Positions 4,842-19,949 of a stretch of DNA of 64,000 bases are shown in pieces (position 1 is the first letter of the stretch; the number at the start of each line of letters is the position of its first letter). The translations under genes and the position numbers were made by a program. The stretch is taken from positions 1 through 64,000 of the forward strand of contig WAPT01000024.1 in assembly GCA_015520605.1 (NCBI GenBank), read 5' to 3'. The DNA comes from Nanobdellati archaeon (GTDB lineage Archaea; EX4484-52; WAPT01). Under the pieces are notes generated by a model that ran no database searches, was not told the DNA's origin, and saw nothing but the letters and a program-made list of their open reading frames with translations.

Positions 4842-5504
4842 ATGCGCGGAGCACAAGCACTAATTTTGTTCGGACTGCTCACACTTGTTTTGATAACCTC
4901 TGGGTGCGTTTCTAACACGGATAGATCTGTAGGCATAACCGCAAATGAGAAATTGACCGTCAATCTCCCCGAAAAACCTCTCAACAAGAGCGCCCTTCTC
5001 ATAATAGCACCACAGAACTTCAGGGATGAGGAGTATTCCGTAACAATGAATGTATTGAAACGAAGCGGAGTGCGTGTTGTTGTCGCATCCCTCAAAACGG
5101 GCATGGTGAGGGGCATGCTGGGGATGAGGGTTATGGTTAACAACACCATCTATGATGTGAACGTATCCGAATTTGATGCCATCATTTTCATCGGAGGTAG
5201 TGGCTCCACAGTGTTTTATGACAACCCGAGAGCTTTGAAAATCGCGAGGGAGGCCTATGAGAGTGGTAAAGTGGTGGCAGCAATATGTCTTGCACCGGGC
5301 ATTCTGGCAAGAGCTGGTATACTCAAAGGTAAGCGTGCAACCATATGGAGCGGTGCAAAGGAAGTGCTGGAAAACGCCGGAGCGATTTATACGGGTAGGG
5401 ATGTTGAGGTGGATGGGAACATAGTAACGGCAAACGGGCCAAAGGCTGCGGAAAACTTCGCAATCACGATAGTTAAACTGCTGGCGAATCCGCCTACTCA
5501 TTAA
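4842..5504 (+). CDS. DJ-1/PfpI family protein with lipoprotein signal
   Basis: FRDEEY, FIGGSG, AAICLAP, TANGP motifs; N-terminal hydrophobic stretch ending in SGC. Confidence 0.9.
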   Translation: MRGAQALILFGLLTLVLITSGCVSNTDRSVGITANEKLTVNLPEKPLNKSALLIIAPQNFRDEEYSVTMNVLKRSGVRVVVASLKTGMVRGMLGMRVMVNNTIYDVNVSEFDAIIFIGGSGSTVFYDNPRALKIAREAYESGKVVAAICLAPGILARAGILKGKRATIWSGAKEVLENAGAIYTGRDVEVDGNIVTANGPKAAENFAITIVKLLANPPTH

Positions 5505-7062: not shown

Positions 7063-7500
7063 ATGGCGGAAGAAAGCCTAACGATGATTGTTGTTGCGGG
7101 AATACTTGTTGTCACCATAATCGCAATGGCGGCGTTTTATTCAACCTCCGTAATGAAGATAAACATAGACAGGGTAACCCTCACAAAAAATACAGCATCA
7201 ACCATATATTCCCTTCTTCTGGAAGTGGCTTCATCCGAGCAGGGCTATGTGGTTTATGAAGCGATAACACCAAAATTCACCGTTAGTCTCACGGATAGAG
7301 AGCTAACGGTGTTGTTGCATACACCAACGGGGAACATACGGGTCTCCTATCCACACGATATCCCGTACGCTGTGAAATCAACCGTAAGTGGTGTGAATAA
7401 ATTATGCATAGTAAAAAAGATTGTTGACTGCACACCCATGCTGGAGATCTGTAATGCTGCAAACAAAACCTGCTGCAGGACGGTGGAGAACATATGCTAA
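7063..7500 (+). CDS. Pilin-like N-terminally anchored protein
   Basis: Single N-terminal hydrophobic helix and a Cys-rich C-terminus; first gene of the operon. Confidence 0.55.
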   Translation: MAEESLTMIVVAGILVVTIIAMAAFYSTSVMKINIDRVTLTKNTASTIYSLLLEVASSEQGYVVYEAITPKFTVSLTDRELTVLLHTPTGNIRVSYPHDIPYAVKSTVSGVNKLCIVKKIVDCTPMLEICNAANKTCCRTVENIC

Positions 7501-7988
7501 AGGGTAAAGAGGAAAAAGGGAAAAAGGGTGGTTTGCCCTACACGCAGGTTTTCAGTGCAATGATAATCATTGTTATGGCTTCCACAGCACTTCTTGTCTT
7601 TACATCAGAATCAAGCTTTAATGCTGAAATGGTCAATTTACTGGCAGAAAAAAGGATCGTTGAAGCATACGCCAACAAAATTATGACCGATAGCTGTATC
7701 ATAGCCAACACATCAATTGAAGGAAAGAGAATGTTCGTGCTCAACAGAAGCAAGATAGAGGCTCTTGATGACGGAGGGACGCTGGATTGCATAGACAATG
7801 ATAACGTAAAGTACGTGATCAAAATCACCGTATACTCTCCGGATTTTCAGTCAGTGATTATGAAAAAGACCCTGAAAAATGTGGAAAATAAAAACATGAA
7901 CCAGACCATAGTTTATCATGTAACCACCGATGACGGATTTCCGGCTGAAGTTGTTTTCGCTTATCTGAACATAACAAACATAATGTGA
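7494..7988 (+). CDS. Class III signal peptide (pilin-like) protein
   Basis: Basic leader KGKKG followed by a hydrophobic helix. Confidence 0.65.
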   Translation: MLKGKEEKGKKGGLPYTQVFSAMIIIVMASTALLVFTSESSFNAEMVNLLAEKRIVEAYANKIMTDSCIIANTSIEGKRMFVLNRSKIEALDDGGTLDCIDNDNVKYVIKITVYSPDFQSVIMKKTLKNVENKNMNQTIVYHVTTDDGFPAEVVFAYLNITNIM

Positions 7989-8003
7989 AGGTGATTCAGT
8001 TAT

Positions 8004-8690
8004 ATGGCGAAGCTACATGATGGTGGAAAGATAAAGGGTCTGGGTCTGGAGGTGCCGATTTTCCTGCTACTCTTCACACTCAGCACCGTCATTATGGTCT
8101 TTCTGCCGTGGACCGACAATATGAAGAAAATAGGCTCTGTGATTAGGTATTACGCGTTAGAACGAAATGGCACAGAGTATTTGATGTACTTTAACACACG
8201 ACCGATGTTGGATTCAGGAAAACAAAGCACTCTGGAGCTGGATGAACTCCTCGGAATCTATAGTTACGGTGCGAGCCACGTGTTGTTATCTCAGGTAAAG
8301 GGTTTCATTCCCAAATGGGGAGAGATTTACATAGATTATGGAAATGTTTCAGGAAAAATAAATCTCAAAGTTGCAGTTGAAAAAGCACTTCCACCCCTCA
8401 AAAAATATGACAGTTGCACACTACCGTCGTTATTATCTATTGGTAAAAAAAATAGACATTTCGTGAACAGAGTCTTTTATCCCGAAAATGTGGACAGCTT
8501 CACATGGGACAACTATATTAAGTATCCCTCTGATGTAGGGGCGTGTTTCGGGGGTAAATACCTCTTTAAGGAGGAGATGGACGTTCCAACACCCAATTAT
8601 GACCTGTCGGTAAGGTATGTGCTTATCTTCAACAATGTAAAGGAAAATGAAGTTCCCAAAGGAATAAATGTGGTCACGCTGGGCGGGTGA
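8004..8690 (+). CDS. Class III signal peptide (pilin-like) protein
   Basis: KIKG/LGLEVPIFLLLF. Confidence 0.65.
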   Translation: MAKLHDGGKIKGLGLEVPIFLLLFTLSTVIMVFLPWTDNMKKIGSVIRYYALERNGTEYLMYFNTRPMLDSGKQSTLELDELLGIYSYGASHVLLSQVKGFIPKWGEIYIDYGNVSGKINLKVAVEKALPPLKKYDSCTLPSLLSIGKKNRHFVNRVFYPENVDSFTWDNYIKYPSDVGACFGGKYLFKEEMDVPTPNYDLSVRYVLIFNNVKENEVPKGINVVTLGG

Positions 8691-8694
8691 GCGT

Positions 8695-10914
8695 ATGAGC
8701 GCAGGCGAAAAAAACAAGGCATTCGCATCTGTACTTGCTGTTGCAATTCTCCTCATGATGTGGGTGGGATTCGGTTTATGGATGCTCAGCAGAACGTTTG
8801 AGGGAATGCAGATCGTTGAGGGAGAGATCATAAGGAACTTTCTCGAGAAGGGGAAATACGAAATTGCGCTGATAAAAGAAAGTCAGGAGCAGCCCGCATT
8901 ACTGTTCGCCATGATGAAAACCGTTCTGGATTATGCATCTCACGGCATGGTAACATCCCGCATGATAACGGAGAGCGGAATAACAACGGACAATTCTGGA
9001 AGGAAGTTTGTTATGAACGTGAAGGTGAGGCTGGAAGGCACGGACAGAAGCTGTATGCGTGTTGAGAATGTGAACGGGGAGTATATCCTTTACTGGGTTC
9101 AGGCCGAAGGCACGGGAATGCAGGTTTACAAGCCAATAGCTTATTTCAGAGATTTCGACGGATGGCTGACAACAACACCGCTCAAGATAAACTTCGATGT
9201 TGATAACGGGTTTACTGTTGGGGAGGTCATGCTGACGCTTTACTTTATAAAGAGAGGAGAGGTAAGCATAATGTCCGACCACACTCTCCTGAAGAAAGCA
9301 ACCACCACTGGTGTTTATTTTATCAAGGGTGATGCGATCCACAACAATGAAATCGAGCTCATTGCTTCAAAAAACGGCACAGCGAAGCTGAGGGGTGTTG
9401 TCGCCACCATATATAAGTATGGTAATCCCAAGGATTTCAGAGTTGTAGACTGCGCAAGGGACATGATACAGGATCTCATGGAAAAGTATCTCGAGGAATA
9501 CTACACTAAGGGTACTAACTTTTACGGGATGAAATTCGTGGGTTCAAAGCCCAATGTGACATTCGATCCATCCACCAACTACATACACGGCAGCGTCTGG
9601 ATGAGTAAGGGGATGAATGTAACAATCAAGTACAGCGACGGAACTCCTATGGTCTTCCTGCATTCAAATATGTTCACGGAGACTAATCTTTCCACACGGC
9701 TGGGACTTCTGATCGATTACGGGAACACCTTTGTTGATCACATAAACGACTGGCTTGTGAGAAAAATTTTCGAGGAATCAAATAAACAGCTCAAAGATTT
9801 TGCCAAGGTCAGCGGTAAATGGGTATGTGGTCCGCTCACCTGCAAAGATTGCCCCGATGATCCGACACCAACCTACAGTAAAGCTGATTTTGAAAGGGTT
9901 ATCCTCACAGCTCTCAACGAGCTTGAATCGGATCTAAATGCAAGCTCAGCCAGAGGAATTGGATGGCGGTTAATATATTTGAGCAATAAGCACAGCTGGG
10001 AAAGTGTTAATGATAATAAAAAACCGTGTTGTGGCAGGGCGACACCAACTCAAACCACAGTGTTGTCTTATAAAGTTAGAGATGAAAACGCGGTAAACCT
10101 TATATCTCAATTTATATCGTATGGCAGTATCAGACTGAAATTCAAAGAACTGCTGAACAGTGTATGTAAAGACTTAAAGGTAACCAAAGAGGAGTGTGAA
10201 AACCTTGTTTCTAATTGCACTCCGCTTCAGAATGAAAAAGATATTCTATGCGATGGTGCATTTCCATCCTTGGAACTCCACGGTTCCTTTACCGAGCTGG
10301 ACGATTTTTGTCAGAACCCGTACGCCAATGAGCTATGTGAAGCTGTGGAGAACAACTGCAGTTCCGTCCTCAACAATAGGATAACAACAGAGGATTTTTG
10401 TGGGAATTTGAGCGAAGCGTACGGAGTGTATATGAAAAACATCGGAAATCTCATAAATAAACTTCGGGAAAACAGGAACGCTCTAACGATGATGACCATA
10501 ACCGACACGGTTACCGGTGGTTGTGGACTTGAGTTCGAGGGATTGAACAAAAATCTCATTCACGTGGAGAGACAGAAATTAATTCAGGTCGTGGGCGGTG
10601 ACTGTGGCATGTATTGCTGTGACGGTTGTAGAGTAGCGCGGAGTTACTGGCATAAGTGTATTATGGAATACTACCACAGATACGTCTTTAAGGATCTCAA
10701 AATACTCGTGGAGATTATTGACAACGATTACAAGGTATTTGATGTTGAAAAAAACAGGTGGGAGCCCGTGGTGCTGAGATTCATCGTAAATATAAATGTT
10801 GACGACAATAGGTGTGATGGTGACAGGGTCTGTATTTCTAATGACATAATTTCCAACGCTGCGATCACACCACAAACTTTTGGAACTTACTCAGTAACCT
10901 TACCAGAAGAGTGA
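8695..10914 (+). CDS. Large Cys-rich secreted protein with a class III-like signal peptide
   Basis: KNKA/FASVLAVAILLMMW leader; many Cys in the C-terminal half. Confidence 0.6.
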   Translation: MSAGEKNKAFASVLAVAILLMMWVGFGLWMLSRTFEGMQIVEGEIIRNFLEKGKYEIALIKESQEQPALLFAMMKTVLDYASHGMVTSRMITESGITTDNSGRKFVMNVKVRLEGTDRSCMRVENVNGEYILYWVQAEGTGMQVYKPIAYFRDFDGWLTTTPLKINFDVDNGFTVGEVMLTLYFIKRGEVSIMSDHTLLKKATTTGVYFIKGDAIHNNEIELIASKNGTAKLRGVVATIYKYGNPKDFRVVDCARDMIQDLMEKYLEEYYTKGTNFYGMKFVGSKPNVTFDPSTNYIHGSVWMSKGMNVTIKYSDGTPMVFLHSNMFTETNLSTRLGLLIDYGNTFVDHINDWLVRKIFEESNKQLKDFAKVSGKWVCGPLTCKDCPDDPTPTYSKADFERVILTALNELESDLNASSARGIGWRLIYLSNKHSWESVNDNKKPCCGRATPTQTTVLSYKVRDENAVNLISQFISYGSIRLKFKELLNSVCKDLKVTKEECENLVSNCTPLQNEKDILCDGAFPSLELHGSFTELDDFCQNPYANELCEAVENNCSSVLNNRITTEDFCGNLSEAYGVYMKNIGNLINKLRENRNALTMMTITDTVTGGCGLEFEGLNKNLIHVERQKLIQVVGGDCGMYCCDGCRVARSYWHKCIMEYYHRYVFKDLKILVEIIDNDYKVFDVEKNRWEPVVLRFIVNINVDDNRCDGDRVCISNDIISNAAITPQTFGTYSVTLPEE

Positions 10915-11683
10915 GAATAATTAGAATCAACACGGAAAGCAGCAGCACGAGATACGGAGGAAGCTTCCTCTGGATTCTCACGGTTTTTATTTCGTTTTTT
11001 TTCAGCACCTCTATTTCTTTTTTTTCAAGTCTTTTCCATGGATGCACAACAACCGAAGAACTAAGTTTAAGTAAATTCATTAAGATTCTAAGCTTTGAGA
11101 GGGACAAAGAATACCTACATACACCATTAGAAGAGATCCATATTGTCTCCGCGGGAAATTCACCAACCAGGTTATGAGTTACCTCAACCTCAAGTGTTGC
11201 AAATTCCGGGACGGTGTAAAAAATTGTAATCAAAAAAACAATTTTTAAAAAAATTTCAAGTACACCGAACCTGTATGAAAGCATACAACCAATTACGATT
11301 AAAATGATAGAAAAAAAACAAATCCAACTACTACAAAATGTATTATTTCCAAATCCGAACACTCCCTTAATCTTTTCAGATAAGAAGAAGATCGAGGAAA
11401 TTATTGCAAGTGACACCAAAAAAGCAATATGTTTTGCGATTCCCAGAAATAACATCGAACACAAAAAAATAGCAAGAAACCCTGCCGAATATCCCGAAAC
11501 ATACAGTAAAGATGTTTCGAAAGCAGAGGTCACAGATTTCCAACCGAACAACCACCCCACGGTTACTACAGTTGCTACGTACAGGGAGAGTATGCTCGCG
11601 ATCGTAGCATTATAGAAATCTCTGAAGAAGTGAATTGCAAGCGCGTAAAGCAGAATTACACCACCGACCTGAACCAGCCTCAT
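10865..11683 (-). CDS. Prepilin/preflagellin peptidase (A24)-like membrane protein, GxGD motif altered to GFGN
   Basis: Multi-TM protein; FRDFYNATI resembles the first-Asp motif; C-terminal EIEVLKK...VRIQRKLPPYL resembles the FlaK/EppA tail; ATG overlaps the upstream stop codon. Confidence 0.5.
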   Translation of the reverse strand: MRLVQVGGVILLYALAIHFFRDFYNATIASILSLYVATVVTVGWLFGWKSVTSAFETSLLYVSGYSAGFLAIFLCSMLFLGIAKHIAFLVSLAIISSIFFLSEKIKGVFGFGNNTFCSSWICFFSIILIVIGCMLSYRFGVLEIFLKIVFLITIFYTVPEFATLEVEVTHNLVGEFPAETIWISSNGVCRYSLSLSKLRILMNLLKLSSSVVVHPWKRLEKKEIEVLKKNEIKTVRIQRKLPPYLVLLLSVLILIILTLLVRLLSKFQKFVV

Positions 11684-13065
11684 CTCACCTCGTACCTCCC
11701 GCACAAATCAGAAATCAACTCACCGAAATTATCCCTGAAGAACTCGATGTTCTCAAAAACATAAGTGAAGAACAGTTTTTTGAACCTGCAATCCTCGCTT
11801 ATGAAGTGGTATGGCAGCACGGATTTCGCAACACCGTAATTCTCTCTCTTGCAAAAGCCGCAGAATCCAATAAAAGGACATGATGAGCACTCAGCGGCTA
11901 CATCCTGCGGATAAATCATGGACTGGAGGAGATTAATGTAAATTTTCTTGTAAGGATCCCTTAGAGATCCTAAAAAAAACTCGGGCAGGGTTTTCATGGA
12001 GTCGCAGGGATAAACGGTACCGTCGGGAGCTATTGTGAGATGCGTTATACCTGCCCCGCAGACATCCCGGAGGCAGGAATATTGACGCACCGTGGTAAAC
12101 ACATTTTTCAGGTAATATTCCACGAACTTGTCTCTGAATCTTATTCCGTGTTTTTTAAGCTTCACTACGTTATTTATGCTTCCCTTAACAAACGATAAAA
12201 ATTCTTCAGCACTCAAAAAAAGATTCTCGTTGCTTTGGGCACGTCCCGCGTTCATCACGGGCCTGTAAAATATGAACGGCCTTTTCCATCTCAAATATTC
12301 CTTGATCACCGCATCAGCACCGCCGTTCTCCATGGTGTGCTTGGTTATGGTGGCTGTGGAGGTTGAGCCCGCCCCTGCTTCTTCGAGTAGCTGGATGGAA
12401 CAAATAACATCCTCATAAGTGCCGTGTCCGTTCGGGTATATTCTGTGTTTATCGTGGATCTCTTTCGGACCGTCCAGCGATATCGAGATACTCATTCCGT
12501 TCTTGGCGGCCCATCGCGCGATGTCTTTATCGATGAGAGTACCATTCGATACCACGATTTTCCTCACAATTCTCTTTCCTTTTTTCCTCGCCGTCCCCTC
12601 AAGCTCCTGCAGGAACTCCTGCATCAAGTCAAACCTGAGGAACGGTTCCCCTCCCTGAAACTCAATCCCAATGTATTTTTTGGGAAGTTTTTCAATGAAC
12701 CTCACACAATCTCTCATGATTTCTCCGTCCATCTCCACGAACCTTTCGGGTGAGGATTCCGCATGGCAATACCTACATGCAAGATTACACCTCAGCGTTA
12801 GATTTATCTGAACGGTCACCATCGGCATCGAATGAATATAGCCCAACCTTTTAATTATGTTCTTCAACACCCTGTTGATATTTCCCTCCGTTATGACAAT
12901 GTTTCTTTCTTCTAACTTTTTCAGAAGGTCATCACTCACCTCTCCCCTCCTGAGCATCCTCAGCTCCTTTTTGTCCAGAATTATCCAGTCTCCGAATCTT
13001 GTGGTCAGGAGCACTTTTCCATTGCTTAATTTTTTCTCGAAACATTCATTGGGTAGGTAGCGCAT
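11680..13065 (-). CDS. Radical SAM/SPASM maturase, HxsB-like
   Basis: CNLACRYC, EFQGGEP, CLRDVCGAG...GTVYPCD, CSSCPFIGFCGFC; N-terminal LLTTRFGDW extension as in HxsB. Confidence 0.8.
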   Translation of the reverse strand: MRYLPNECFEKKLSNGKVLLTTRFGDWIILDKKELRMLRRGEVSDDLLKKLEERNIVITEGNINRVLKNIIKRLGYIHSMPMVTVQINLTLRCNLACRYCHAESSPERFVEMDGEIMRDCVRFIEKLPKKYIGIEFQGGEPFLRFDLMQEFLQELEGTARKKGKRIVRKIVVSNGTLIDKDIARWAAKNGMSISISLDGPKEIHDKHRIYPNGHGTYEDVICSIQLLEEAGAGSTSTATITKHTMENGGADAVIKEYLRWKRPFIFYRPVMNAGRAQSNENLFLSAEEFLSFVKGSINNVVKLKKHGIRFRDKFVEYYLKNVFTTVRQYSCLRDVCGAGITHLTIAPDGTVYPCDSMKTLPEFFLGSLRDPYKKIYINLLQSMIYPQDVAAECSSCPFIGFCGFCKRENYGVAKSVLPYHFISEDCRFKKLFFTYVFENIEFFRDNFGELISDLCGRYEVR

Positions 13066-13079
13066 CCCACCACCCTATT

Positions 13080-14003
13080 TTATTGGGTTATGGGCACGAT
13101 TTCATCAGCGCCGAAGTAATCGATATAAGAGTACCATACCCCCCAGCATTTACTCCTCATCACGCATTTCTCGCAGGGTTCCAGCAGCCCGTAATTGTCC
13201 TCGAAACGCCTGTTTATTATCTGTTTCGTGGGTGATTTGTAACCGTAAATGGTCTTCGGCTGCGGTGCGACAAACCTCCACAGGTGTTCCGGAAGGACGC
13301 AGTAGGGGAACCCGTAGAACTTAACTCTCAGTCCCGAGCTTTCCACGATCTCCGCGGCTCTGCTGAGGTTTTCGGTGATATCCGTCATTCTCACCGCAAA
13401 GAGCTCGGCATTTCTCAGAGCGTTTCCCGTTATGTCGAGAGCATGGAAGGAAAAAGCTTTAACATCGTCAAACATGCTCAGCACAAGGCTTGCGATTCTC
13501 TCCAGCTCCGTATAGTTTGCTTTCGTGACTATCGTCTTCAGCTCAACGTTCATCCCCGCATCGAGAGCGTTTCTCACACCATGAATTGTTTCTCTGAAGC
13601 TCCCTCTCGCTCCCGTGACCCAGTCGTGTTTTTCCTCCTTCCAGGAGTGAAGCGCCACTATAACATGAATTATAGGATAAGCTGAAAGTCTCTCGGCAAA
13701 ACAGCGCGAAGATAACCTCCTGCCGTTGGTGAGGAGAACGTAACTCAGCCCGGGCCTTCTCGATTTTATCCTCTCAAGTATCTCAAAGAAGTCGTTCCTC
13801 ACGGTTGGCTCGCCACCGGAAATTTCAAGGATTTGTATGTCTTCTGGCAGTGAAAGAACAAAATTCACAAGCTCGTTGGTACTTATTTTTTCCTTTTTCG
13901 CCCTCTCTCCGGAGCTCACCGCGCATATTTTGCAGTTATTGTTGCACTGATACCCGAAAACACAGTAGGCCTTTTTTATTTTCATCGTGCTCATATTCTT
14001 CAC
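13080..14003 (-). CDS. Radical SAM protein, HxsC-like
   Basis: CNNNCKIC, SGGEPT, LLTNGR, GFPYCVLP, CEKCVMRSKCWG. Confidence 0.8.
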   Translation of the reverse strand: MKNMSTMKIKKAYCVFGYQCNNNCKICAVSSGERAKKEKISTNELVNFVLSLPEDIQILEISGGEPTVRNDFFEILERIKSRRPGLSYVLLTNGRRLSSRCFAERLSAYPIIHVIVALHSWKEEKHDWVTGARGSFRETIHGVRNALDAGMNVELKTIVTKANYTELERIASLVLSMFDDVKAFSFHALDITGNALRNAELFAVRMTDITENLSRAAEIVESSGLRVKFYGFPYCVLPEHLWRFVAPQPKTIYGYKSPTKQIINRRFEDNYGLLEPCEKCVMRSKCWGVWYSYIDYFGADEIVPITQ

Positions 14004-14057
14004 ACATGAATGAATGCAAACTGAACTGTCCTTCTCAACAAAACCATCTGCGATATT

Positions 14058-14351
14058 TTAGTGTCCCCCATTACTCCAGTTACTCCAATCACACCATTCA
14101 CTCCAATCGTGCCAGTTTATCCAGTTGTTCCAGTGGTTGTTCAACCAGTTGTTGTACTCATTTTGGAGATCCTTCCAGCTCTGCTCGTTTGTAACGCAGT
14201 TATGGTGAGTGGATTGGGTGTGTGCAAGTTTTGAAAGGAGAGGGAGGGAACACACCGCAGTAAACAGGAGAAACATGTTCAGCGCCCCTTCACAGTCATC
14301 CTTGGATACCAGCATGGATCTCATTTTTCTAAACCGATCTCTCCAGCTCAT
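14058..14351 (-). CDS. Putative RiPP precursor with Trp-Xaa-Asn/Asp/Glu repeats
   Basis: C-terminus YNNWLNNHWNNWINWHDWSEWCDWSNWSNGGH; GAAGGTG SD-like site upstream; lies between the HxsD-like and HxsC-like genes. Confidence 0.75.
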   Translation of the reverse strand: MSWRDRFRKMRSMLVSKDDCEGALNMFLLFTAVCSLPLLSKLAHTQSTHHNCVTNEQSWKDLQNEYNNWLNNHWNNWINWHDWSEWCDWSNWSNGGH

Positions 14352-14700
14352 TCTCTACACCTTCATAATCTTCAGACTGTTTTGATATGTCCGGTATCAC
14401 CCCCTTTATCGCCAGCTCCAGCAGGAGTTTTCTTACATCTCCAAACCTGCGTAGATTCATCTCTTCCATCTCCGCCTGCAGCAGTTCAGCAAAGAACGCA
14501 TCAATGAGTTCCTCTGTGTTCTCCCCTTCAGGCGGCTTTAACTCCACAGTGATCTCCTCGATACCGTCTCCGAGCACACGAACTCTGCATGTCTCAAGCA
14601 TTCTGTATGCAGCTCTCATAACAGTGCTTTTTGAATAAAGTGTCGAAGGGAGCTTTATTTTAACAATACCGTCGGCAACTTCAACAGTTTTTTTATCCAT
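14329..14700 (-). CDS. HxsD-like accessory protein
   Basis: LYSKSTVMRAAY...FFAELL...GDVRKLLLELA pattern typical of HxsD; about 123 aa. Confidence 0.7.
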   Translation of the reverse strand: MDKKTVEVADGIVKIKLPSTLYSKSTVMRAAYRMLETCRVRVLGDGIEEITVELKPPEGENTEELIDAFFAELLQAEMEEMNLRRFGDVRKLLLELAIKGVIPDISKQSEDYEGVENELERSV

Positions 14701-14759
14701 ATTCCGATTATGGAATGGGGAATTTTTATTTTTAATTGATGGAAAGGGATAACCCAGTA

Positions 14760-14960
14760 TCATTTCGGCAACAGACCGGCCACATACTTCCCAATACCCA
14801 CGATCTTGCCAAGCCACCACCAGTTGGATTGAATGGCACTGATGATGGGGGATGCCACAGTTTCAAGCAGGATGTATGCGAGGGCGATACAGAGTATAAA
14901 CACGACAATATAAATTATCAGCATTATCTGCCCGCCGACCAGAGCCTTTCTTCTGACCAT
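14760..14960 (-). CDS. Small class III signal peptide protein
   Basis: MVRRKA/LVGGQIMLIIYIVVF. Confidence 0.65.
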   Translation of the reverse strand: MVRRKALVGGQIMLIIYIVVFILCIALAYILLETVASPIISAIQSNWWWLGKIVGIGKYVAGLLPK

Positions 14961-14972
14961 AAAATCGACCTT

Positions 14973-15128
14973 TCAGCCTCCAGCCTTTTCCCAAGGGAGG
15001 TCTGCGAGACCGAAGATTTTGTCCACAGAACCTTTACCTAATTTTATTATTATAAGTACCACGGCAGTCATTAATAATATAATAAAGATGATCTCCACCC
15101 AGGAGAGACCTTTATTGCTTCCGCGCAT
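14973..15128 (-). CDS. Small pilin-like protein (51 aa, absent from the ORF track)
   Basis: Translated by hand: MRGSNKG/LSWVEIIFIILLMTAVVLIIIKLGKGSVDKIFGLADLPWEKAGG; Glu at +5. Confidence 0.75.
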   Translation of the reverse strand: MRGSNKGLSWVEIIFIILLMTAVVLIIIKLGKGSVDKIFGLADLPWEKAGG

Positions 15129-15634
15129 CAGCACTCACCTGTTTTCCCACAAGTAGAATTAATGACTATACATATGCTCTGACAATTATCTTTGGTAATT
15201 GTGATATTAGTTTCCTTACCGTCTGCGGGTGCGGTAATTTCTGCGGTGCAGGTGCCGTCATCGGACACGGTGCACTCAGCTTCCGGCTTATCATTCGATT
15301 TTATAGTTACCGTGCCGCTTGTGGTGCCTGTGAGTTTCAGGTTTATAACGCACTTTCCATCGTTGTTCTTTGTTATGTCCTTCAGCTCAATTGAACATGA
15401 TGTGCTGCTGCCACCCCCCACGGTTTCATTGACTTTCTCCCCTATGCCCACGGTTGTCTGATTTATCGATTGTTTTGTGGATTTGAACGCAGGAAGCAGA
15501 GTACCGCCGTATACCCGTATTATAATCGCAGCCATTATCATGAGTATAAGAAGAATTATTATTATTTCCAAAAATGAAAGACCTTTTTTATACCAATCCC
15601 GTATGTTTTGTGTAAACATTTTGCGTTGGGGCAT
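15128..15634 (-). CDS. Pilin-like protein with a beta-rich, Cys/Thr-rich C-terminal domain
   Basis: KKG/LSFLEIIIILLILM; Glu at +5. Confidence 0.75.
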   Translation of the reverse strand: MPQRKMFTQNIRDWYKKGLSFLEIIIILLILMIMAAIIIRVYGGTLLPAFKSTKQSINQTTVGIGEKVNETVGGGSSTSCSIELKDITKNNDGKCVINLKLTGTTSGTVTIKSNDKPEAECTVSDDGTCTAEITAPADGKETNITITKDNCQSICIVINSTCGKTGEC

Positions 15635-15838
15635 TTACCATTTACCTCCTGTTATGTTCTTCATACCTTCCTGTACCGTCTGGTTAGATTTTTCTATACC
15701 CGAACTGACGAGTTCTCCGAACTTGTGCAGGTTGGCACCCCCTATTTTAATAATAATATATCCCATAACCATGGCGATTATGATAACTATAACTATCCAG
15801 AACACCTTCTCAAAACCCTTTCGCACACTTGCCATCAA
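15635..15838 (-). CDS. Small class III signal peptide protein
   Basis: VRKG/FEKVFWIVIVIIIA. Confidence 0.7.
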   Translation of the reverse strand: MMASVRKGFEKVFWIVIVIIIAMVMGYIIIKIGGANLHKFGELVSSGIEKSNQTVQEGMKNITGGKW

Positions 15839-16023
15839 ATCACCACTCCGAATTTCGCCCTTGCAACATCCATAATTTTGTCAAAAATACTCTTTATTTT
15901 TTCATCAAGTTTAACATTCCAGTGTTTGAAAAGTACAATAAAAATAAAGGTCAGAAACACAAGCAACAGTATAATAAACACAACTTCTATATGAGATGTG
16001 CCCTTCTTTCCCTGCTTGACCAT
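15835..16023 (-). CDS. Small pilin-like protein
   Basis: GKKG/TSHIEVVFIILLL; Glu at +5. Confidence 0.75.
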   Translation of the reverse strand: MVKQGKKGTSHIEVVFIILLLVFLTFIFIVLFKHWNVKLDEKIKSIFDKIMDVARAKFGVVI

Positions 16024-16201: not shown

Positions 16202-16417
16202 ATGCCGGGAGGCACATTTAAAAGAAGGAAAGGTCTTGAATTGGGCCTAACGGAATTCGGGCTGATAATGCTGGCACTTTTCATAGGTATGATTATTTTT
16301 GTTTTTTTGACCAAGGAAGGCGGATTTCTGGATAAAGTCAGAGAAACGGGATGCGACCTCAGCAGTTTCATAACAGGTTTTCTGAAAATCATCGGTATCA
16401 ATACGTCCATTTGCTAA
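16202..16417 (+). CDS. Small class III signal peptide protein
   Basis: KRRKG/LELGLTEFGLIMLALFIG. Confidence 0.7.
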   Translation: MPGGTFKRRKGLELGLTEFGLIMLALFIGMIIFVFLTKEGGFLDKVRETGCDLSSFITGFLKIIGINTSIC

Positions 16418-16425
16418 TAAACGAG

Positions 16426-19400
16426 TCACGCCCCAATAATTCTGAATTTGATCCGGATTCCCTCAGTTTCAAATTCATCTCCGTCCTCCACAGTTTCAAA
16501 CCTAACGGATATATTGGTGTCCTTTTCAATCATTTCCTTCCATCTCTCCACGAACTCCTTACTTCCCTCAACAGCAACCACAGCCTTATCCTCAAACCTC
16601 AGACCAAGTTCCTTCCTCGCGAGCTGAATTCTCCTTATGAATTCCCTTGCGATACCCTCCTCCTTAAGCTCGGGTGTTAGTTCAACCTTAAGAAGCACGG
16701 CGGTGTTCTTCACCACTCTGCCGTCATAGCCTTCGGGCAGGGAAACCAACTTCACTCTAACATCGATCATGTCTCCTGTTAGTTCAAAACCACCAATCTC
16801 GATTCTTCCATCTTTTTCAAGAGCTTCGAGCACATCCTTTCCGTTTAGAGACTTGAGCGCCTCCACAACCTCTCTAGTTCTCTTTCCGAATCTGGGTCCT
16901 ATAACATCATACCTTGGTCTCACTTCGTAATCTAATTGGATGTCATCCCTTATTTTAACTCTCTTCACATTCGCGAGTTTCATGATTATCTCCTTTAGAT
17001 TACCAAGAGCTTCGGTGAGCTCATTCGCGGAGAGCACAACCTCTTCGAGAGGCCACCTGAGCCTTATATTGCGGCTCTGCCTCATGGAGTTTACCTCCTC
17101 CACCACACCCATGACAAGATCCATTTTGCTTTCCAGAGTTTCGTCGATTTCCTTTTCGTTCCATGAAGGCCAGGACAGCAGATGTATGGATCCCTCTCTT
17201 ACAATCTCTCTGAAAACCTTGAGATAGAGGTACTCAGCAACATACGGTGTAAACGGCGCAAGCATTTTCAACACTTCGAAGTAAGCTCTGGAGATGACGT
17301 AATCCATGGCATCCCTGTCCACACCTTCATCGTACCTCTCCTTTGCTATTTTCAGGTAGAATCGCGAGAAGTCTTCCATCACGAAGTTCACGATTTCCCT
17401 GGCAGCGTAATGGAAGTGGAAGGTGTCTATGTACTCAGTAACTCTTTTTATGGTTGAGTTCAACCTCGAGAGCAACCATCTGTCTTCGGCCCTGCTTACA
17501 TACTGTTGGTTATCAAGCCTTATCTTTACACCGTACATGTCGATGAAATTGGAAATATTGACAAGAATGTTCATGAAGCGGAAAAGCTCCTTTGCTTCAT
17601 TCATGCTGAACTTGTGCGTTTCCCATGGAGCTGTGCTGTAGCATACGTAAAGCCTTAGAACATCAGCACCAAGCTGCTCGAAGGCCTCCTCAGCCGAGAT
17701 CACGTTGCCCAAGCTTTTGCTCATCTTCTCTCCTTTTTCATCAAGAACCCATCCGTTCATGCACACAACATCGTATGGCCTCTCTTTGAAAGTTGCAGCT
17801 GACATGAAAAGCATCGCGTGGAACCATCCTCTTATTTGATCCTGAGATTCATCAACCAGATCAACGCGCCACAACTTGTTAAACAGACCGCTATCATTGT
17901 AAGGGTAGCCGAGTGATGCCCAAGGAGCGACACCGCTCTCCACCCATATATTTATTATGTCTGGAATCCTTTTCATTTCCCCTCCACACTTCTCGCAGCG
18001 CAGCACAACTTTATCAACGACATGCTTGTGAAGATCATCAAGCTTAACTTCATTTATCATTCTCTCATCCAACTCCTTTTTGCTGCCGATGGCAATCATG
18101 TGTCCACAGTTCTTACACTCCCAGATTGGGATCGGAGCTCCCCAGTAGCGCTGCGTGGATATACACCAATCCTCTTCATTCTCCACCCAATGCTTCATTC
18201 TCTCCCTTGCAAAATCAGGGAGCCACATTGTTTCTTCGTTGAATTTGAGCATGAGATCCTTTATCGGATCGATGCGGAAGAACCACTGGTCGGTGGTGCG
18301 ATAAATTAAAGGTGTCTTGCACCTCCAGCAGAGCGGGTAGCTGTGTACTATTCTCTCAGCATGGAAGAGCAAACCTTTTGCTCTCAGATGTTCTATTATC
18401 TCCTTATCGGCATCCTTCGCAAACTTACCTTTAAGCCATCCAGCCTCGCTGGTAAACCTGCCCTCATCATCAACAGGAGAGAGCACGGGCAGGTCATAAT
18501 GCTGCCCGAGCTTGTTATCCTCAGGCCCGTGGCCGGGGGCACAGTGCACTATCCCTGTACCGACATTCATCGTTACCATGTGGCCGAATACTTCCTCTTC
18601 ACTCTCCTTACTTTCGATCTCTTTCTTGACCATAACCTTAGAAGCAACTACTTTCTTCAGAATCGGTACAGACAGCACTACCCTATGGGCTCTCCCGCTC
18701 TTTGCAGCTTCCTGCTGAACCGGCAGCTCTGACATGAGGGGCTCATATTCTATCCCGTCAAGATCCTTACCCTTTAAGACTTCCACAACCTCATAACTTT
18801 CAATTCCCGCTCTTTTCATCACATCTTCAAGCCTTTTCTCAGCAAGAATGAGAATCTCATCATTGACCTTCACTTTAACGTAGTTCTCGTCTGGATGCAC
18901 AACGAGAGCTACATTGGCTGGCAGAGTCCACGGTGTGGTGGTCCACGCAAGGAGGTATTCATTCTCCTTGTCCTTAACCTTGAACTTAACATAAATGGAA
19001 GGGTCTGTGACATTCTTGTATGAATCCGTTGCCTCATACCCCGAAATGGAGGTCTGACACCTCGGGCACCAGTGGATTGGTTTTTTACCCTTGACCATCA
19101 ACCCTTCATCGAAGAGCTTCTTGACGGTCCACCATGTGCTCTCTATATAGTATGGCTCATAAGTCAAGTAGGGCTGTAGCCAACCCTTCCAGGCTGCAAG
19201 ATCTTTATAGTAGTTCATCCACTCGGTAAGATTCTGAGTGGCAAACTCCTTACACATCTTTATAAAGTTCTCAACACCAACTTTTTCTTCAATCTCCTTT
19301 TTGGATTGTATGCCAAGTCTCTTTTCCATCATGTTCTCAATTGGCAGTCCGTGGCAGTCAAAACCCGGCTGGAACCAGACAGCATAACCATTCATGAACT

Positions 19401-19608
19401 TAAACTTACCCCAGAGATCCTTGAAGACTATGGTCATGGCATGCCCGGCGTGGGGTGGCGCATTTGCATACGGAGGACCATCAAGTAGATAGAATTTCTT
19501 ACCCTTTTTCTTTAGATTCTCCTCGAAGTCCACAATTTTTTCTGGGACTTTGTTCTTCTCCCAGTACGCCTTAACTTCCTGCTCGATCTTTCTGAAATCG
19601 TACTGCAT
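16426..19608 (-). CDS. ileS: Isoleucine--tRNA ligase
   Basis: DGPPYANAPPHAGH (HIGH variant), GFDCHGLPIE, WTTTPWTLPAN, DQIRGWF, KMSKS. Confidence 0.97.
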   Translation of the reverse strand: MQYDFRKIEQEVKAYWEKNKVPEKIVDFEENLKKKGKKFYLLDGPPYANAPPHAGHAMTIVFKDLWGKFKFMNGYAVWFQPGFDCHGLPIENMMEKRLGIQSKKEIEEKVGVENFIKMCKEFATQNLTEWMNYYKDLAAWKGWLQPYLTYEPYYIESTWWTVKKLFDEGLMVKGKKPIHWCPRCQTSISGYEATDSYKNVTDPSIYVKFKVKDKENEYLLAWTTTPWTLPANVALVVHPDENYVKVKVNDEILILAEKRLEDVMKRAGIESYEVVEVLKGKDLDGIEYEPLMSELPVQQEAAKSGRAHRVVLSVPILKKVVASKVMVKKEIESKESEEEVFGHMVTMNVGTGIVHCAPGHGPEDNKLGQHYDLPVLSPVDDEGRFTSEAGWLKGKFAKDADKEIIEHLRAKGLLFHAERIVHSYPLCWRCKTPLIYRTTDQWFFRIDPIKDLMLKFNEETMWLPDFARERMKHWVENEEDWCISTQRYWGAPIPIWECKNCGHMIAIGSKKELDERMINEVKLDDLHKHVVDKVVLRCEKCGGEMKRIPDIINIWVESGVAPWASLGYPYNDSGLFNKLWRVDLVDESQDQIRGWFHAMLFMSAATFKERPYDVVCMNGWVLDEKGEKMSKSLGNVISAEEAFEQLGADVLRLYVCYSTAPWETHKFSMNEAKELFRFMNILVNISNFIDMYGVKIRLDNQQYVSRAEDRWLLSRLNSTIKRVTEYIDTFHFHYAAREIVNFVMEDFSRFYLKIAKERYDEGVDRDAMDYVISRAYFEVLKMLAPFTPYVAEYLYLKVFREIVREGSIHLLSWPSWNEKEIDETLESKMDLVMGVVEEVNSMRQSRNIRLRWPLEEVVLSANELTEALGNLKEIIMKLANVKRVKIRDDIQLDYEVRPRYDVIGPRFGKRTREVVEALKSLNGKDVLEALEKDGRIEIGGFELTGDMIDVRVKLVSLPEGYDGRVVKNTAVLLKVELTPELKEEGIAREFIRRIQLARKELGLRFEDKAVVAVEGSKEFVERWKEMIEKDTNISVRFETVEDGDEFETEGIRIKFRIIGA

Positions 19609-19949
19609 GGTGATCACACAGCTTAATGTTTAAGGGAGGAAAATTTTTAAGGGTAAACGAGACATGAGGAAAAACAAAATCACATTGTTGAATGAAAATT
19701 ATTTTAATTTTTAAAAGGTTTTAAAAGAAAAATTCCCGTAAACAGAACTGCGTACTGCATACTGATATTAAGTTAAGGAGCACAAGCTCGAGGTTAGTAA
19801 TATTCCTTTACTCTCTGAAGTCGGAATTGTATTGACGGTTTAAGACTGCCAATGGTTTGAAGGATAAGAAACAAAAAGTGAGAGATTCTACGAGAAAAAT
19901 TAATCTGGTCAATCGGTGTTAGCAGAAATAATGTTGAGGTGTCTGAAAT

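Follow-up and report, generated by a model that had tools for sequence, protein, structure and literature searches.

We analysed a stretch of 64,000 nucleotides (the window) from a Nanobdellati archaeon (GTDB lineage Archaea; EX4484-52; WAPT01), comprising positions 1 to 64,000 of the forward strand of contig WAPT01000024.1 in assembly GCA_015520605.1. Its minus strand carries five co-oriented and tightly packed genes, which encode, in order, a small HxsD-like protein, a Trp-rich peptide, an HxsC-like radical S-adenosylmethionine (SAM) enzyme, an HxsB-like radical SAM/SPASM enzyme and a polytopic membrane protein. This operon is a real, conserved and phylum-restricted variant of Hxs-type peptide maturation. 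Judging from its sequence, it points to an undescribed family of enzyme-modified, exported Trp-rich peptides.

The HxsD-like gene (14329-14700, minus strand; 123 aa; NCBIfam TIGR03976) is given here from the ATG at 14700, which is most likely its true start according to the homology with a 96%-identical relative (L001) and the sequence itself. Its open reading frame (ORF) spans 14329-14820 if the GTG at 14820 is taken as the start; that longer form is probably not used. The gene overlaps by 23 nt the precursor peptide gene (14058-14351, minus strand; 97 aa plus stop), which was delimited from the ORF and 22 homologous loci. A gap of 54 nt separates the peptide gene from that of the HxsC-like enzyme (13080-14003, minus strand; 307 aa; TIGR03977; Pfam Radical_SAM and Fer4_12), and 14 nt separate the latter from the gene of the HxsB-like enzyme (11680-13065, minus strand; 461 aa; TIGR03978; Pfam Radical_SAM and SPASM). 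The start of the membrane-protein gene (10865-11704, minus strand; 279 aa) overlaps the end of the HxsB-like gene by 25 nt. The ORF listing thus bears out the order of four packed genes proposed in the original prediction, which had overlooked the fifth.

The same arrangement recurs elsewhere. A phmmer survey of 20 fetched loci repeatedly found the order HxsD-like, peptide, HxsC-like, HxsB-like, completed in related loci by the membrane protein after the HxsB-like gene. Variants include an additional HxsC-like gene ahead of the peptide (G009 and G040) and a tandem-fused double HxsC of 587-611 aa (G006, G012 and G041). Among the fetched loci, no HxsD-like gene was seen adjoining the cassette in G006 and G012.

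The Trp-rich peptide is encoded by a conserved gene

The 97-aa peptide ends in ...SWKDLQNEYNNWLNNHWNNWINWHDWSEWCDWSNWSNGGH. The last 40 residues contain nine Trp (Trp-repeat core, residues 59-97; 14061-14177, minus strand), with seven consecutive W-x-(N/D/E) triplets, as originally predicted, and ten aromatic-x-(N/D/E) triplets altogether. We scanned the six reading frames of the whole 863-kb genome, in which 4948 stop-to-stop frames are 60 aa or longer. The peptide frame was alone in reaching nine Trp per 40-residue window, the runners-up being two frames with seven, and the background Trp frequency in the long frames of this genome is 0.97%. The Trp density of the peptide tail is, therefore, far beyond chance. 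The underlying DNA repeats only weakly (period 9, 77-85% matches, Tandem Repeats Finder scores 32-44) and is, thus, not a recent microsatellite.

Compared with the 96% relative L001, the peptide ORF shows 11 substitutions, ten of them at codon position 3 (nine synonymous and two non-synonymous), and a single 3-nt indel, which is in frame. Read from these substitutions, the ORF evolves as a coding gene, with a signature of purifying selection.

The peptide, which contains no H-x-S triplet, matched no NCBIfam (E up to 0.01) or Pfam family, and a search with the single sequence retrieved only a 98% relative as a homologue. The family surfaced only by means of a profile. Trp-rich C-terminal peptides of ~100 aa lie beside HxsC-like genes in many genera, and the profile was built from an alignment of 14 of them (A1). 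It detected 22 loci (E 1e-21 to 1e-38) in 19 of the phylum's 42 genomes (the phylum corresponds to one order in this genome collection), covering 7 of its 13 genera and five families, and no match in any of the 359 other archaeal genomes. Against 1.84 billion cluster representatives, the profile retrieved 21 matches at E <=0.001, 17 of which are of this type (E up to 3.7e-10). Neither a relative among viral contigs nor a usable match in the ESM Atlas was found for the peptide. A survey of sequencing runs listed no RNA set, and the DNA sets X1 and X2 were labelled hydrothermal vent metagenome.

Coordinate comparison placed the peptide on the same strand as, and directly upstream of, an HxsC-like match at all 22 loci. 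The original prediction had staked its case on the ORF at 14058-14351 being kept beside homologous enzymes, and this is what the 22 loci and the signature of purifying selection show. A TGA flag appeared on three of the 22 profile matches: in G034:C64 and G035:C9, it corresponds to the alignment overrunning the natural stop, and the third is G022:C50. HxsC-like proteins were also searched for in related genomes, 46 out of 61 of which gave a match at E 1e-10 or better; given that 8 out of 14 control genomes matched too, only strong matches are meaningful in that scan.

The shortness of the ORF and its lack of an NCBIfam or Pfam match would be in keeping with a chance reading frame. Conservation over five families at the E values given above, the bias of substitutions toward the third codon position, the in-frame indel and a Trp content unique in the genome speak against this explanation, which the family conservation and the substitution pattern effectively refute; we regard it as next to impossible. 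The peptide is a real, conserved gene, always located beside homologous enzymes.

Anatomy of the precursor

The alignment of 14 peptides contains four invariant positions (M1, G22, C52 and W74), and W83 is nearly invariant. We examined the anatomy of the precursor and the spacing of its Trp residues in 28 non-identical family members. The leader, or export-signal part, of the window's peptide (residues 1-44; 14220-14351, minus strand) consists of a basic n-region, the invariant Gly22 and a hydrophobic segment of 19 residues. The n-region measures 21-31 aa and bears a net charge of +1 to +7 in 27 of the 28 members; in the 28th (P0125), the start was miscalled upstream. All 28 have the invariant Gly followed by a 19-residue hydrophobic window (Kyte-Doolittle hydropathy 1.5-2.2) and then a polar stretch, mostly with an A-x-A-like (small-x-small) motif such as EAEA, EASA, EVEA or EAHA, among others. 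The invariant Cys lies a few residues past this stretch, and it is followed by a variable linker and the Trp region. In the window, the Cys52 codon occupies 14196-14198 (minus strand), just upstream of the Trp-repeat core. Taken together, hydropathy, charge and the A-x-A pattern suggest a signal-peptide architecture, in agreement with the membrane targeting or export originally proposed for the hydrophobic leader, with an n-region that is unusually long and conserved. This long n-region may combine enzyme recognition with export.

W-x-N-[H/N]-[C/H/S/Y]-W marks, for most members, the start of the Trp region, which then diversifies by lineage. Trp recurs with period 3 (W-x-N/D) in the window's genus and in G006, G012, G017 and G041; with period 2 (WNWSWCWSWGW) in G007, G034 and G035; and with period 5 (CWWDH) in G009, G013, G018 and G040. 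Counted over the 28 members, Trp-Trp spacings of 3 are the most numerous (73), followed by spacings of 2 (42), 5 (28), 1 (19) and 4 (19). The residue at position i+2 from a Trp (n=216) is N in 63 cases, D in 55, W in 42 and H in 25; N, D, H and W together account for 185 out of 216, and N, D or E for 123 out of 216. Additional Cys occur within the Trp region of most members (NHCW, WCW, WCDW). The search for W-x-N/D peptides near homologous enzymes, as originally suggested, brought out Trp-rich peptides whose repeat period depends on the lineage (3, 2 or 5); on the family alignment, back-to-back W-x-N/D triplets are not the conserved feature.

The Hxs-type enzymes and their small partner

The family affinities of the neighbouring enzymes were assessed with hidden Markov model (HMM) searches. 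For the 461-aa protein, HxsB (TIGR03978) is the best of 75 NCBIfam families, with 250.2 bits (249.7 in a second search) and an E value of 3.6e-74 over model positions 7-452 of 466. The second family is PapB, with 143 bits, 107 below HxsB; DynA (108 bits), YhhB (75) and DarW (64) also scored. The 307-aa protein has HxsC (TIGR03977) as its best family (182.8 bits, E 6.4e-54), the next one reaching 83 bits. Both enzymes contain a CX3CX2C motif, located near the N-terminus in the HxsC-like enzyme, which has, in addition, a C-terminal CX2CX5C motif. The cluster Cys residues of the HxsB-like enzyme (C93, C97, C100, C336, C354, C393, C396, C402, C405 and C426) are invariant in 26 homologues. Its closest solved structure is 5wgg (179 bits), which we take to be the SCIFF thioether enzyme CteB, followed by an anaerobic sulfatase maturase (169 bits). 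A search of 5.8 billion proteins returned Aenigmarchaeota/Aenigmatarchaeota metagenome bins as the source of the nearest named homologues, and some DPANN proteins among the homologues had already been named HxsB by NCBI or JGI. Going by these names, the host is a DPANN-type archaeon and probably one of the Aenigmatarchaeota. PADLOC 2023 gave only generic viperin-model radical SAM matches. A complex prediction for the HxsB-like enzyme and the peptide, each supplied as an alignment, scored 0.00, which weighs neither way.

HxsC-like proteins are also found in another context. Three loci, L022 (G038:C33), L023 (G016:C23) and L024 (G028:C17), contain tandem arrays of 5-6 HxsC-like paralogues, some of them fused to double length (635-674 aa). 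No HxsB-like gene and no Trp-rich peptide were detected in the fetched stretch of these arrays.

The sole NCBIfam match of the HxsD-like protein is TIGR03976 (32.2 bits, E 1e-7). An alignment of 14 homologues (A4) has invariant residues Y22, G44, D45, F69, E72, L73 and R90; the HxsD motifs LYW and LLNDYxLRE are loosely kept, and L-Y-S/P and F-x-x-E-L are invariant. Its AlphaFold2 (AF2) model (predicted local distance difference test, pLDDT, 78) has a beta-beta-alpha-beta-beta-long-helix fold and matched nothing in the PDB at E <=0.001. The top rows were RNA polymerase Rpb11/L-like subunits (E 1.2e-3, template modelling score about 0.45-0.55). A protein-protein interaction fold is only a lead drawn from this model. 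The structure search of the AF2 model does not support a peptide-binding domain of the RiPP recognition element (RRE)/PqqD-like type.

Many HxsD-like proteins of Trp-peptide cassettes bear short, Cys-containing C-terminal tails (SNSC, KCGCC, TKNCK), and two have a Cys-rich insertion of ~70 aa (KQNCG.CG.DCE...); the proteins concerned are encoded at L026 5478-6140, L038 3799-4497, L034 3583-4095, L036 7116-7670 and L029 7448-7894. There is also a second cassette subtype (L031 4048-7372, L040 4107-7509 and L041 1467-3648) with no Trp-rich peptide. Its HxsD-like protein has a C-terminal tail (...KPW...), with a final Cys in L031 and L041, and an additional ORF of 88-93 aa immediately precedes the HxsB-like gene, falling in L031 and L040 between it and the HxsC-like gene. 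By eye, the additional ORF of L041 resembles a second HxsD-type protein. From the sequences of this subtype, the substrate may be fused to HxsD.

A proposed pathway of peptide maturation and export

Building on the genes, the family affinities of the enzymes, their conserved linkage to the peptide, its coding constraint and its signal-like leader, we infer that the peptide is the substrate of the enzymes encoded beside it. The five-gene operon would probably mature and export a Trp-rich peptide whose core receives radical SAM cross-links. The two radical SAM enzymes would install these radical-mediated cross-links in the cytoplasm, before export, since neither carries a signal and both depend on Fe-S clusters and SAM. 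Bacterial HXS (HxsA-D; TIGR03976-03979) offers a precedent for the third protein: a pair formed by HxsC and HxsD has been reported from pull-down experiments (PMC13128918), and the archaeal HxsD-like protein would partner the HxsC-like enzyme in the same way. The favoured cross-link would join the Trp ring to the beta carbon of residue i+2, whether N, D, H or a further W, the four residues that fill this position in 185 of the 216 cases counted. Once modified, the peptide would be exported and its signal segment removed, leaving a rigid extracellular product of ~50 residues, and the membrane protein would probably assist processing or export.

A Trp cyclophane chemistry is plausible because OscB, according to the published description, bonds C7 of Trp to the beta carbon of an Asn or Asp residue (PMC11002830). 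By this analogy, poly-cyclophane chemistry is a plausible outcome for the archaeal peptide. A stack of about ten W-x-N cyclophanes, as foreseen in the original prediction, is one possibility and not a family rule, given that Trp recurs with periods 2 or 5 in relatives.

Several observations weigh against cross-linking of the Trp core by enzymes of Hxs type. The best-match assignments to HxsB, HxsC and HxsD that had been predicted hold; all three, however, score below the curated cut-offs (about 250 bits versus an equivalog cut-off of 370 for HxsB, 182.8 versus an equivalog cut-off of 267.9 for HxsC and 32.2 versus 50 for HxsD), and the gene order is not canonical. None of the 61 genomes searched contains an HxsC match above the cut-off. 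The HMM comparison with triceptide maturases that had been suggested brought out no kinship: the HxsB-like enzyme reaches 61.3 bits with the GrrM/OscB model (TIGR04261; cut-off 310), within the radical SAM core only, and 70 bits with the sequence of the triceptide synthase ChlB structure. By these scores, it lies outside the characterised three-residue cyclophane-forming families. Trp spacing varies (period 3, 2 or 5), so that no single three-residue motif defines the peptide family. Moreover, the sole chemistry reported for bacterial Hxs is a change of +8 Da on SHRSS, and not the -2 Da of a cyclophane (PMC13128918). Finally, the enzymes that come nearest among solved structures and as second NCBIfam family, CteB and PapB, are thioether maturases (SCIFF and ranthipeptide, respectively, in the NCBIfam list), and one Cys of the precursor, Cys52, is invariant.

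The closeness to CteB and PapB and the invariant Cys speak for a rival chemistry, in which a thioether of sactionine or ranthionine type, formed between the conserved Cys and a carbon of another residue, would be the key modification and the Trp repeats would be structural or binding elements that are not cross-linked. The enzyme scores lend themselves to it, as PapB, a ranthipeptide maturase, comes second with 143 bits, maturases of SCIFF and other Cys peptides are also listed, and 5wgg, presumably CteB, is the nearest structure to the HxsB-like enzyme (179 bits). So does the precursor, in which Cys52 is among only four invariant positions and more Cys lie in the Trp region of most members. 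On the other hand, HxsB outscores PapB by 107 bits, the repeats of L029 and P0135 have no Cys inside them, and the Trp positions are the most conserved feature of the core. We consider it unlikely that a thioether is the key modification, and we favour cross-linked Trp. As there are two radical SAM enzymes, a thioether and a Trp cross-link could also coexist.

The membrane protein and the genomic surroundings

The fifth gene of the operon has counterparts at all nine related loci considered, where the HxsB-like gene is immediately followed, on its own strand, by an ORF of 249-310 aa with 4-7 predicted transmembrane segments. With a best E of 1.7e-9, six of these nine members match Pfam PF06819 (Arc_PepC), the domain that ends archaeal A24 peptidases and to which the 279-aa protein is thereby related through its family; the window's own protein does not match Arc_PepC. 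The family contains no match to the Peptidase_A24 catalytic domain, of which two conserved Asp are typical, and no invariant Asp. A canonical A24 prepilin-type peptidase is encoded on another contig (G000:C10:31108-31788, L064; Peptidase_A24 36.6 bits, plus Arc_PepC), and the membrane protein of the operon is, therefore, an additional, divergent relative. Its AF2 model is of low confidence (pLDDT 57.6), and a Foldseek search of the PDB with this low-confidence model returned nothing at E <=0.001. Its ESM Atlas matches were no more than leads, all below 0.9, to clusters of Arc_PepC and Peptidase_A24.

Convergent with the operon lies a gene (8668-10914, plus strand) for a large Cys-rich surface protein of 748 aa, with a class-III-signal-like N-terminus and no Pfam or NCBIfam family. 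In half of the 20 fetched loci, the phmmer survey placed one of its homologues next to the cassette (10 loci: G001, G006, G007, G009, G012, G034 with two contigs, G035, G036 and G041), so that it is conserved beside the cassette. The N-termini of seven of seven proteins examined have K/R-G/A followed by a hydrophobic stretch. We count the 748-aa protein as an uncertain member of the system.

A cluster of pilin-like genes also flanks the operon (14760-16023, minus strand; 16202-16417, plus strand; and 7494-8690, plus strand). It encodes small proteins of 53-228 aa with K/R-G followed by ~20 hydrophobic residues, that is, class-III-signal-like N-termini, and L025, a locus of the same genus, has this set too. 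Further away, a DJ-1/PfpI family protein is encoded at 4842-5504 (plus strand; 134.7 bits versus a cut-off of 139), with a lipoprotein-like N-terminal signal ending in ...TSGC. A 1063-aa ORF at 16426-19617 (minus strand) contains HAGH and KMSKS motifs and is presumably an isoleucyl-tRNA synthetase, going by the class I synthetase signatures.

These surroundings raise the question of whether the Trp-rich protein is a radical SAM substrate at all. It could instead be a co-transcribed, secreted or membrane-anchored, pilin-like surface protein, and the enzymes would then act elsewhere, for instance on the Cys tails of HxsD-like proteins, which several of them have, or on the large surface protein. 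Pilin-like genes with class-III-type signals surround the operon in the window's genus, the large pilin-like protein accompanies half of the fetched cassettes, the membrane protein is related to the C-terminal domains of A24 prepilin peptidases, and the invariant Gly immediately ahead of the hydrophobic segment of the precursor is prepilin-like. However, the residues leading to this Gly (K-T-G, D-D-G, C-E-G) do not match the K/R-G/A class-III site of the neighbouring pilin-like proteins, and all 22 loci, drawn from five families, have the peptide gene flanked by the HxsD-like and HxsC-like genes, as is typical of a precursor. A repeat-rich C-terminal core behind a conserved leader is, moreover, the standard architecture of radical SAM peptide substrates, and the precursor displays it. 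A surface protein that is no substrate is, thus, improbable, more so than the thioether alternative, and we retain the peptide as the probable substrate.

The same surroundings bear on what the mature product could be used for. We tentatively suggest that it is a cross-linked Trp-rich component of the envelope, placed on the cell surface or on pilus-like filaments, rather than a diffusible antibiotic. As part of the same tentative proposal, the A24-related membrane protein would aid processing, and the product might be, by analogy, the archaeal counterpart of the HxsA gatekeeper. Its role could equally tentatively be that of a barrier to the entry of viral genomes or that of a part of an apparatus for attaching to hosts. 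Such a component would fit the conserved large pilin-like neighbour, the putative export signal and the retention of the operon in small genomes.

Significance

Genomes that retain the operon range in size from about 0.6 to 2.2 Mb, the majority having about 1 Mb. Its retention in about half of the phylum's small genomes suggests an important role in the envelope, in defence or in host interaction, and not that of an optional secondary metabolite; its biology may be envelope-related and not antibiotic-like. As far as the literature was found, this would be the first family of radical SAM-modified Trp-repeat peptides in archaea. The open full-text literature yielded no Trp-repeat peptide with Hxs-type enzymes and no archaeal case, in line with the original prediction, whose author knew of no such combination in archaea, although supplementary genome-mining tables and subscription papers could hold one. 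Hxs-type enzyme pairs are widespread, yet the one chemical change reported for them is an unexplained +8 Da on a single His-x-Ser motif. A repetitive Trp substrate should yield large and easily mapped mass changes, which makes Hxs chemistry directly testable, and the lineage-specific repeat periods (2, 3 and 5) form a natural series for the study of how cross-link partners are chosen.

Comparison with known systems

Triceptides, of the GrrA/OscA1-OscB and XncB types, are described as three-residue cyclophanes formed on aromatic-x-x motifs (PMC11002830, PMC11499958), XncB reportedly bonding C6 of Trp to the beta carbon of an Arg or Asn residue (PMC11002830). Like the OscB-type systems, the archaeal operon combines a core rich in W-x-N and W-x-D units with an adjacent SPASM radical SAM enzyme. 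Unlike GrrA/OscA1-OscB, it has a second radical SAM enzyme and an HxsD-like protein, its maturase lies outside the GrrM/OscB family, and relatives of its peptide carry W-x-W and CWWDH repeats in place of W-x-N. The window's peptide does not match the GrrA/OscA1 model (TIGR04260; cut-off 31 bits), nor do P0122, P0135 and P0137. Separately, four weak profile matches (P0138-P0141) of ~100 aa begin with a classical signal peptide, continue with a helical linker and finish in a WGNWGNWPNW... run at the C-terminus, and P0138 scores exactly at the TIGR04260 cut-off of 31 bits.

The core of darobactin counts seven residues. DarE, a radical SAM/SPASM enzyme, is reported to cross-link Trp to residues two positions off, a Trp-Trp link included (PMC9055067). 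This link, as described, serves as a precedent for those family members whose core reads W-x-W-x-W; unlike the archaeal operon, however, the darobactin system is bacterial, relies on a single enzyme and lacks Hxs-type proteins. CteB (5wgg/5why) and PapB share the radical SAM and SPASM architecture of the HxsB-like enzyme. Unlike the archaeal peptide, their substrates are Cys-rich without Trp repeats, and they have no HxsC or HxsD partners.

A description of 2026 presents bacterial HXS as an antiphage system whose effector is exported; according to it, HxsA, which bears a signal peptide, is exported once it has undergone HxsBCD-dependent maturation, the gene order is D-B-C-A in 99.6% of bacterial systems, and 99.7% of HXS systems are in Pseudomonadota (PMC13128918). 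The antiphage function changes the likely biology of the archaeal operon. Both systems pair an HxsB-lineage with an HxsC-lineage radical SAM enzyme and add a small HxsD-like protein. As far as the bacterial system has been described, they also share enzymes without signals, which implies modification ahead of export, and a substrate with short aromatic-x-polar repeats; the N-terminal export signal of HxsA may have its counterpart in the signal-like leader of the archaeal peptide. The differences lie in the gene order, which is D-peptide-C-B-membrane protein in place of the reported D-B-C-A; in the substrate, a 97-aa Trp-repeat peptide with neither the His-x-Ser repeat nor the peptidoglycan-binding domain of HxsA; in the additional membrane-protein gene; in the DPANN-type archaeal host; and in the scores of all three archaeal enzymes, which stay under the curated equivalog cut-offs. 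The archaeal operon would work like bacterial HXS, yet it falls outside that system as its membership is defined.

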